Shown piece after piece: positions 18,601 through 19,297 of a stretch of 22,753 nt of DNA. Below the pieces are notes generated by a model. It was not told the DNA's origin. It saw nothing but the letters and a program-made list of their open reading frames with translations, and did no database searches. Within the stretch, counting starts at the first letter, position 1, and every line of letters starts with the position of its first letter. Origin of the DNA: a virus (taxonomy: Duplodnaviria > Heunggongvirae > Uroviricota > Caudoviricetes). Location of the stretch: IMG/VR virus record IMGVR_UViG_2526164651_000008, positions 1 to 22,753 of that record. One strand, 5' to 3'. A program made the translations under genes and the position numbers.

Positions 18601-19297
18601 GCGAGATTTGAGACGAAGGTTGTTATTTGCACTGACACAATATTGTGTGGGAATGTCTGACTCCTTACCATCTCCTGTTCTGTGATGTTGTTTTGTTGCA
18701 GTTCCAGTGCTCTTTTTTCAGCACCAGAATGGTGCATTGTCGGTCAGGTTACGTAGTGAACCTCTGGCAGGGGACTGATGATTCATCATTCTGGTGTTGT
18801 AAATATCTCTTCGGACAACTTACAAAATATTCTAAGAAAACCCCGGGAACACACTCTTAACTGCCTTGACTAGCGGTTTTTTGTACAGCGCTCGGTATGT
18901 GTGAGCTGGAAATCAGATTTTGCATGGACTGGAATCATGCTGTTATTTAGGGGCGAAGAACTGGCTTTTTCTTCCGCCTTCTCACCAGTAACGATTAGAA
19001 AAATAATGAAATGCCCCCTCCGGGGAGGAGGGCCGTAGAAAAAAGGACCCGCCAGCAAAAACATTGGGGATGAACAGCTTTCGCTACTCAGATTGCTGGC
19101 GGGTAAAGTTCCTCATGAATTAAGAATGCTACGCGATCTTTTTTAATGGAAATGAAAATTATTGTCAATTAGTCGTGCGTGTTTTTTCATACAATATTGG
19201 TAAAGGTGATTCAGGTCATCAGAGTTTTGCTGATGGCCTTTTTCTTTCCGATAGCACAGGTCTGTCGGGGGGTGTCCCTATTAAGTTGTCAAGCATG

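Follow-up and report, generated by a model that had tools for sequence, protein, structure and literature searches.

The interval between a tRNA array and an IS110-family insertion sequence (IS) in a Caudoviricetes record (IMG/VR IMGVR_UViG_2526164651_000008, positions 1 to 22,753; the whole stretch of 22,753 nt is referred to as the window) is interpreted here as the native late-operon leader of a lambdoid prophage of the Shigella flexneri/enteroinvasive Escherichia coli (EIEC) type, carrying a probable new prophage small RNA (sRNA) gene. A probability of roughly 0.6 is assigned to this reading. As placed in a preliminary description of the sequence, the interval is flanked by the tRNA array, whose last gene, tRNA-Gly, ends at 18600, and the IS110-family element; its right border, given there as 19270, was moved to 19272, as comparison with other recovered copies of the element set the IS end at 19273. 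The interval is a mosaic of three pieces, namely 18601 to ~18805, 18900 to 19243 and the last ~110 nt.

All 670 nt were found at 98–99% identity in nine EIEC genomes. In EIEC CFSAN029787 the same stretch separates tRNA-Gly from a class II holin gene; the prophage around it also has genes for lysozyme, Rz, terminase and portal, and RefSeq places no annotation inside this spacer. Homology between the window and EIEC ends at 19272, and the EIEC holin ATG (MYQMEK...) is found 9 nt further on. The preliminary description had assigned the interval to the start of the late operon; this placement was borne out, with Q, a PR'-like promoter and a tR'-like terminator preceding the interval and, in intact relatives, the holin gene directly following it. 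Comparison with lambdoid late regions, proposed in the same description, returned the native EIEC tRNA-to-holin spacer at 99% identity and no lysis-gene remnant.

Decay of the lysis region had also been proposed as the origin of the interval. The window does lack lysis genes and holds short open reading frames (ORFs), the longest in the interval being 71, 64 and 61 aa, but decay from the lysis region or from another protein gene is scarcely credible: the same 670 nt, identical at 99% over their full length, precede an intact holin gene in EIEC, and the lysis genes are absent from the window rather than degraded in place. Fragments of holin or endolysin were sought in six frames by tblastn/blastx with the holin, YdfR, lysozyme, Rz and terminase proteins of the intact EIEC relative, and none was found in the interval or in the whole window. 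Pfam and PHROGs searches with all interval ORFs gave zero matches, and Rfam 15, run on both strands of 18601–19272, gave nothing at the gathering threshold nor at E ≤ 5. No homologue of a known protein or sRNA across the interval emerged from Pfam, PHROGs, Rfam or the tests against the Pas sRNAs given below. The earlier statement that 18601–19270 has no convincing coding capacity thus stands, with no conserved ORF, no Pfam, PHROG or Rfam match and no lysis-gene fragment, as does the description of its ORFs as short and non-conserved: in the right half, where five lineages were aligned, not one ORF keeps its start, frame and stop throughout. The scattered hairpins noted there are real and exceed chance, with 7 terminator-like sites in 17300–19400 against 2.1 ± 1.6 in shuffles. 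Four inverted repeats lie within the interval, one with a perfect 12-nt pair.

Positions 18900–19243 form a non-coding module of 344 bp with sharp borders in the alignments, referred to here as the holin-upstream module. Of 5426 complete E. coli genomes, 1431 carry it, at 85–87% identity. Strain E1 has it directly upstream of a class II holin gene in an intact prophage. On a ColV-type plasmid it is flanked by an IS remnant on one side and by Rz/Rz1 fragments and iss on the other, adjoining iroBC, and in the CFT073 pap island and related plasmids it lies between IS remnants, ~2 kb from papI. In two viral contigs (L037 and L032) the module follows a gene for a pertussis-like toxin A subunit; in L037 a pertussis-toxin-S1-like ADP-ribosyltransferase ORF (1271–2002; PF02917, E 6e-14) stands directly 5' of it. 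The slot taken by this ADP-ribosyltransferase is the cargo slot of stx or of tRNAs in other phages. The last ~110 nt of the interval also precede the holin gene of an Stx1d phage, and a more diverged version is present in prophage PP4 of enteropathogenic E. coli (EPEC) E2348/69. A scan of one genome per bacterial species limited the module core to Shigella/E. coli; core matches in Polaromonas/Burkholderiales look like unrelated chance matches. A full-text literature search for the core sequence returned unrelated matches only, and RefSeq annotates either nothing or a "hypothetical protein" at the module.

The module carries a predicted leftward transcription unit. A sigma-70 promoter was read on the minus strand at 19140–19168, with a −35 of TTGACA (19168–19163), a 17-nt spacer and a −10 of TAAAAA (19145–19140), and both hexamers are invariant across the five lineages. 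Over part of the −35 and nearly the whole spacer lies a Fur-box-like 19-mer (19148–19166) matching the consensus GATAATGATAATCATTATC at 14 of 19 positions, which is the best site in the entire window. Its orthologues score 16/19 in the CFT073, E1 and ColV versions and 17/19 in viral contig L110, and among 300 shuffles none reached 16 and six reached 14. As expected of a Fur-regulated promoter, the box overlies the −35/−10 region, and Fur control is predicted; for the Shigella version this prediction is held with less confidence than the production of the RNA itself.

From this promoter a small RNA of ~95 nt is predicted by fold and conservation (19037–19133, minus strand), with an AU-rich 5' part. 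Its terminator has a perfect 12-bp stem (19104–19093 / 19058–19047) followed by UCCUUUUUUCU, with a U-run at 19044–19039. The stem encloses an inner GAAA-tetraloop hairpin and the C-rich single strand CAUCCCCAAU, within a structured loop of 34 nt; the inner GAAA (GNRA) hairpin is built with G.U pairs and forms on the minus strand only. The predicted fold has an energy of −31.6 kcal/mol (z −3.6). A second terminator-like hairpin with a U-rich tail was found in tandem with the first by the terminator scan (19014–19032, minus strand). The terminator stem-loop is the best-conserved part of the module, with a mean pairwise identity of 93.8% against 73–77% in the flanks, and invariant columns make up 59 of 69 positions there and 172 of 287 elsewhere in the module (Fisher p 3.8e-5). 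This conservation persists on the ColV-type plasmid and the pap island, where no phage function remains. In the EIEC and E1 relatives, 120–240 nt separate the leftward unit from the downstream holin start, and the two are on opposite strands. The suggestion in the preliminary description that the interval may be a non-coding RNA locus is plausible in the light of this minus-strand promoter-to-terminator unit with its elevated conservation, and of a plus-strand hairpin with strand-specific G.U pairs described below; expression is predicted from sequence. We put somewhat better than even odds on the leftward RNA being made, and the unit appears to be a new member, possibly under Fur control, of a class of prophage sRNAs encoded just before the holin gene.

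A small protein or a type I toxin-antitoxin pair would be another way to read this region, since short ORFs overlap its conserved part (for example a 26-aa ORF at 19088–19168 on the minus strand and a 45-aa ORF at 18901–19038 on the plus strand) and small membrane proteins are common at holin-adjacent sites. This is improbable: no ORF keeps its start, frame and stop in the five lineages, a Shine-Dalgarno sequence with a conserved start was not seen, and family searches gave no matches. A conserved small hydrophobic ORF paired with an antisense RNA, as in type I toxin-antitoxin systems, was likewise lacking, no ORF being kept across lineages.

On the plus strand, the strongest terminator of the region is an intrinsic terminator at 19213–19249, identified by scan and located ~30 nt before the position of the holin start in relatives. 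It reads AGGTCATCAG-N7-CTGATGGCCT plus a T-run, with a 10-bp stem containing 5 GC pairs, a 7-nt loop and the tail TTTTTCTTTCC, as is characteristic of rho-independent terminators. Its consensus fold across lineages is −14.9 kcal/mol on the plus strand versus −8.4 kcal/mol on the minus strand, and both the Stx1d phage and EPEC PP4 retain it. An sRNA running rightward to this terminator was considered and rejected for want of a usable promoter: the candidate hexamers TTGTCA and TACAAT are spaced 22 nt apart, and other lineages do not keep the −10. When the upstream regions of related class II holin genes were scanned, 21 of 42 distinct regions had a terminator on the plus strand that passed stringent criteria and lay no more than 150 nt from the start, against 14 of 351 control windows, and these holin-upstream terminators comprise at least six unrelated sequences.

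A promoter-like site (TTTGCA-18-TATTAT, 18251–18280, plus strand) was found by promoter scan 10 nt 5' of the tRNA array and, if active, would give Q-independent rightward transcription toward the lysis genes. This site and the strong rightward terminator together fit an insulating role for the latter, in which the lysis genes are reached by Q-modified polymerase only. The terminator would stop polymerase unmodified by Q, such as that started at the tRNA promoter, and the lysis genes would then be expressed after Q antitermination only.

The main competing explanation for the module is a leader acting purely in cis, in which the hairpins are late-operon terminators or insulators, no stable trans-acting RNA is made, and the module spreads through its linkage to the holin gene; the rightward hairpin would guard the lysis genes and the leftward one would stop stray antisense transcription into the tRNAs. 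In its favor, plus-strand terminators are common before class II holin genes, as counted above, the stem of the candidate sRNA shows no covariation, its −10 is imperfect, and no known RNA family matches it. Against it, a perfect −35 at the right distance, a Fur box and tandem terminators make up a complete transcription unit; the loop and the 5' flank are nearly invariant in addition to the stem; the unit is kept on the ColV-type plasmid and the pap island, where the holin gene and tRNAs are gone; and analogous units in this slot are proven Hfq-bound sRNAs. On balance the purely cis explanation is considered rather unlikely.

Several observations nonetheless weigh against the preferred reading of a native leader with an sRNA gene. 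The −10 hexamer is without the usual T at position 6, the automated promoter scan did not list the leftward promoter, and the Fur box of the window, at 14/19, is the weakest version of the site. The five lineages are too similar to provide covariation for the sRNA stem (alifold term ~0), and the two stem variants with a single-base change favor opposite strands. A GC-rich hairpin could owe its high conservation to a purely cis role, for example as a terminator shielding the tRNAs from antisense transcription, and the candidate is a prediction from sequence. Pairing of the candidate with the holin start was not above controls, 424 of 500 shuffles equaling the duplex energy in what is a crude test; a role as repressor at the holin start was set aside, the duplex energy being no better than that of shuffles. 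Complementarity to the start region of entC, which pairs with an RNA of prophage PP4 discussed below, was not beyond that of shuffles. Homology to PasA and PasC, two Hfq-dependent sRNAs of EPEC, was tested and not found, with a best blastn E of 0.8 (word size 7), and the covariance model (CM) of the candidate scored PasC at 12.5 bits (E 1.2) and PasA at 11.3 bits (E 2.2). Identity with PasA, PasB, PasC or PasD was rejected, the window containing no Pas sequence match and the CM matches not being significant.

The left part of the interval (18601–18899, plus strand, ~300 nt) is a non-coding tRNA trailer, which in other lambdoid phages accompanies the tRNA-Thr/tRNA-Gly pair. Positions 18601 to ~18805 are 71–79% identical to the segment following tRNA-Gly in phages SerU-LTIIb (two copies) and vB_EcoS-683R6, where the homologues are likewise located between Q and the holin gene. 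Within it, an inverted repeat with 31-nt arms (18715–18745 / 18773–18803) forms a long imperfect hairpin with a helix of 28 pairs (18715–18803, plus strand). Across four copies in three phages, 96% of the pair cells are standard pairs, with nine one-sided changes (via G.U) and two two-sided changes that keep the pair; when the partners were slid as a control, 35–59% were paired. The same cells are 96% paired when read on the plus strand and 77.5% on the minus strand, with 29 G.U cells on the plus strand, and this asymmetry together with the G.U cells identifies the hairpin as a structure formed in the rightward RNA. A duplex of 28 bp in a polycistronic phage RNA suggests an RNase III-type processing site or a stability element of the tRNA/late transcript. 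The left half as a whole does not stand out as structured RNA (z −1.4 on the plus strand and 0.06 on the minus strand), the hairpin at 18715–18803 alone doing so. Its 3' arm contains a near-perfect palindrome, TGATGATTCATCA (18773–18790), kept as GATGCATC in the other phages, which could alternatively be a protein-binding site. A weak terminator-like hairpin plus T-run was detected by the terminator scan at the end of the trailer (18859–18888, plus strand).

The right end of the interval is the leader and ribosome-binding region of the holin gene (19248–19272, plus strand), identified by its fold and by comparison with the empty EIEC site, and consisting of the hairpin CCGATAG/CTGTCGG followed by a G-run at 19267–19272. 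The empty EIEC site at the insertion point reads GTCGGGGGGCGGGATATG, which is the holin ribosome-binding region. The inserted element is ISEc20 of the IS110 family (19273–20723, minus strand; transposase 19298–20494), named after RefSeq copies of 99% identity and matching Pfam PF01548 and PF02371. IS110-family elements are target-specific. Across 32 distinct junction sequences of ISEc20 copies, from ~20 flanking contexts, most junctions carry a run of 5–9 G and the flanks are otherwise unrelated; the junction in the window is GGGGGG at 19267–19272. The earlier proposal that the interval is a preferred IS110-family target is thereby upheld for its last ~6–10 nt, the G-run, and not for the 670 bp as a whole.

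Directly after the IS lies the head/DNA-packaging gene FI (20757–21158, plus strand; Pfam PF14000, E 6.6e-39), followed by FII-like head genes. Because FI directly follows the IS, the far flank (20724–20756) being the upstream region of FI, the genes from holin through capsid are deleted, and with these genes gone the prophage can neither lyse its host nor package DNA. Some Shigella-derived contigs have ISEc20 at the same point with the holin gene intact on its far side, and others have the FI flank as in the window; S. flexneri SFBU1023 has the same Q-tRNA-spacer-ISEc20-FI layout at 98.7% identity. As read from these sequences, the history is a simple insertion of ISEc20 followed by loss of ~10 genes, holin to capsid. 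One ISEc20 insertion into the G-run at the holin ribosome-binding site and a later deletion thus locked this Shigella prophage in place. In another lambdoid prophage, that of E. coli 95-3192 (NZ_CP027362; L058 1191–3810), the order is Q, tRNA-Ile, tRNA-Arg, ISEc20 and terminase small subunit, with no lysis genes between; disabling of late regions by ISEc20 may have occurred in repeated events.

A 63-bp fragment 100% identical to one end of ISEc20 (window 20661–20723, inverted) was observed ~230 bp from the module in CFT073 (L001 4576–4638) and also in L003 and L004, and this pap-island fragment may be a relic of an earlier ISEc20 insertion at a similar kind of site. Upstream of the ISEc20 transposase is a non-coding stretch of ~230 nt (20495–20723, minus strand), which we take, from the IS621 literature, to be the position at which IS110-group elements encode their bridge (guide) RNA. 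That the interval is functionally part of ISEc20, as an extended target or a non-coding RNA region of the IS, would accord with its abutting the IS, with the target specificity of IS110 elements and with the 63-bp end fragment ~230 bp from the modules of CFT073-type pap loci (chromosomal and plasmid-borne). The interval is unchanged where the IS is absent, however, most junctions share the G-run alone, and the non-coding end of the IS lies on its other side, upstream of the transposase (20495–20723), all of which makes this possibility very improbable.

Upstream of the interval, the late antiterminator gene Q (231 aa; 17418–18113, plus strand) was identified by Pfam PF06323 (Phage_antiter_Q, E 1.6e-89). 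A consensus scan placed a PR'-like promoter, TTGCAA-17-TATATT, at 18097–18125 and a tR'-like terminator at 18183–18195 plus a T-run, both on the plus strand (PR'/tR' block 18097–18202). A promoter and terminator directly after Q are the usual lambdoid arrangement. The order of Q, PR'/tR' and lysis cassette is that of a lambdoid late region, with holin, lysozyme and Rz following the interval in EIEC and E1 and the cassette deleted in the window. The leader from PR' to tR' (18126–18202, plus strand) would yield an RNA of ~70 nt analogous to lambda 6S RNA, and shows a weak sub-threshold Rfam resemblance to isrK (16.8 bits, E 1.6); on the opposite strand, 18169–18239 shows a weak sub-threshold resemblance to STnc370 (25.9 bits, E 1.8). 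The array itself comprises four tRNA genes (18290–18600, plus strand; ARAGORN and Rfam), with anticodons CAT, Arg-TCT, Thr-TGT and Gly-TCC. The first of these (18290–18366) was called Met (CAT) by ARAGORN, and RefSeq annotates the identical EIEC gene as tRNA-Ile; this discrepancy fits the lysidine-modified Ile2 type that is common in lambdoid tRNA arrays. Elsewhere in the window, Rfam matches were obtained to CssrB (chromosome-encoded Shigella sRNA B; 1368–1547, minus strand, 230 bits) and to IS009 (408–611, minus strand, 129 bits), and these fit a Shigella/EIEC origin of the window.

In the model that we propose, a two-piece leader consisting of the tRNA trailer and the module is truncated at its right end by ISEc20. 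The trailer hairpin would be a probable processing or stability signal of the rightward transcript, and the 344-bp mobile module would behave like a small "moron" situated just before the holin gene. The leftward promoter, with its strong −35 and Fur box, would drive an RNA of ~95 nt with a rho-independent terminator, a U-tail and a second terminator as backup. This RNA would be an Hfq-type sRNA, probably induced by iron limitation, which could act in trans; it would also be perfectly antisense to the leader of the late transcript. As a rule for annotation, the lambdoid tRNA-to-holin spacer may be treated as a structured leader with a processing hairpin, a slot for a leftward sRNA and a rightward insulating terminator, neither junk nor a dead gene. 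Should the RNA not be expressed, the interval would be an ordinary conserved late-operon leader with terminators.

The closest counterparts in position and design are PasA and PasC, Hfq-dependent pathogenicity-associated sRNAs of EPEC E2348/69 with the homologues EcOnc51/52 in enterohemorrhagic E. coli (EHEC) (PMC8550237; bioRxiv 10.64898/2026.05.13.724894). PasA is encoded on the minus strand of E2348/69 from 743499 to 743415, flanked by an esterase gene and a holin gene (start 743713) that are both on the plus strand; its locus has a TTGACA −35 and a separate rightward terminator ~45 nt before the holin gene. The seed of PasA is held in the terminator stem AGCCAGCAC/GTGCTGGCT, and a minor read-through form ends at a second terminator (PMC8550237; bioRxiv 10.64898/2026.05.13.724894). 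Like PasA and PasC, the window unit stands in a lambdoid prophage, antisense to the late operon and, in the EIEC and E1 relatives, directly upstream of a class II holin gene; it has a TTGACA −35, a length of ~80–95 nt, a 3' stem-loop plus U-run with GCCAGC (the PasA seed) in the 5' arm of the stem, and a separate rightward terminator 30–45 nt before the holin gene, and it is restricted to Escherichia/Shigella. Its second terminator in tandem is comparable to that of the read-through form of PasA. Unlike PasA and PasC, the window unit has a longer stem with a structured loop of 34 nt, and its RNA is predicted where theirs are Hfq-bound sRNAs. Its promoter carries a Fur box, whereas none was found in the PasA intergenic region of PP2, to which the scan was confined, leaving aside the PasC region of PP5. 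The module is found on ColV-type plasmids, in pap islands and in Shigella, whereas the Pas sRNAs are found at esterase-linked loci of EPEC/EHEC.

The best non-self match of the CM (17.5 bits, E ~0.08) is a leftward unit in EPEC prophage PP4 that is annotated as a coding sequence (CDS), E2348C_1013, and located on the minus strand at record positions 1060609–1060704 (L080 1610–1705). The PP4 block TTGACAATAAT, its Fur box (15/19) and its rightward terminator before the holin gene align with the window module. In Hfq RNA interaction by ligation and sequencing (RIL-seq), the E2348C_1013 RNA is always RNA2 (1060613–1060672, minus strand; ~808,000 reads) and forms 263 chimeras with the entC 5' untranslated region (p 4e-165) (PMC8550237 table S3). 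In an hfq mutant its level falls, with a log2 fold change of −2.9 (PMC8550237). The RNA is complementary to the Shine-Dalgarno sequence and start codon of entC. Although annotated as a CDS, E2348C_1013 behaves as an sRNA, and it is not among the named Pas sRNAs. The abundance and Hfq dependence of the PP4 RNA and its pairing with entC indicate that, in at least one relative, the shared cassette works in vivo and is linked to iron metabolism. The PP4 and window units have a homologous promoter block, Fur box and rightward terminator, and the same orientation and length class; they differ in that the body and terminator of the PP4 RNA are PasC-like and that it is complementary to the entC start region, which the window RNA is not.

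Taken further, these comparisons would make the pre-holin slot a general docking site for leftward sRNA genes, with interchangeable bodies under a shared promoter/terminator cassette, and the module an unrecognised Fur-repressed Hfq-type sRNA gene that has escaped from phage and links iron limitation to virulence or phage control. This extension is offered as a tentative possibility; behind it is the spread of the module, which is present in about a quarter of complete E. coli genomes and on ColV plasmids by iss and iron-uptake genes. Should the leftward RNA prove real, the PasA/PasC class, itself a recent description, would extend beyond EPEC/EHEC, and a widespread iron-responsive regulator on ColV plasmids, islands of extraintestinal pathogenic E. 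coli and Shigella prophages would have gone unannotated so far.

Three other described RNAs were compared and rejected as identities for the candidate. PapR, considered with the module ~2 kb from papI in CFT073, has a different sequence, and its primer and probe sequences are absent from the window; the probe for C271 of uropathogenic E. coli, from the paper on PapR, is likewise absent. svsR of the adherent-invasive E. coli prophage NC-SV is at the 3' end of cI, within cI, and is a different locus.

In phage lambda, tR' and downstream late-operon terminators are read through by Q-modified polymerase. The rightward terminator of the window, for which read-through by Q is predicted, differs from tR' in standing immediately before the holin gene and after the cargo (tRNAs, toxins), not beside PR'; like the lambda late terminators, it is an intrinsic terminator that the late operon carries between Q/PR' and the lysis genes. 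RyhB and other Fur-repressed sRNAs are Hfq-dependent RNAs of ~90 nt with a Fur box over the promoter. The candidate has no sequence homology to RyhB (no Rfam match), its Fur control is predicted, and it is borne on prophages, plasmids and islands and not on the core genome; with the RyhB-type sRNAs it shares a Fur box over the promoter, a length of ~90 nt, a terminator stem containing GCCAGC and a long U-tail.

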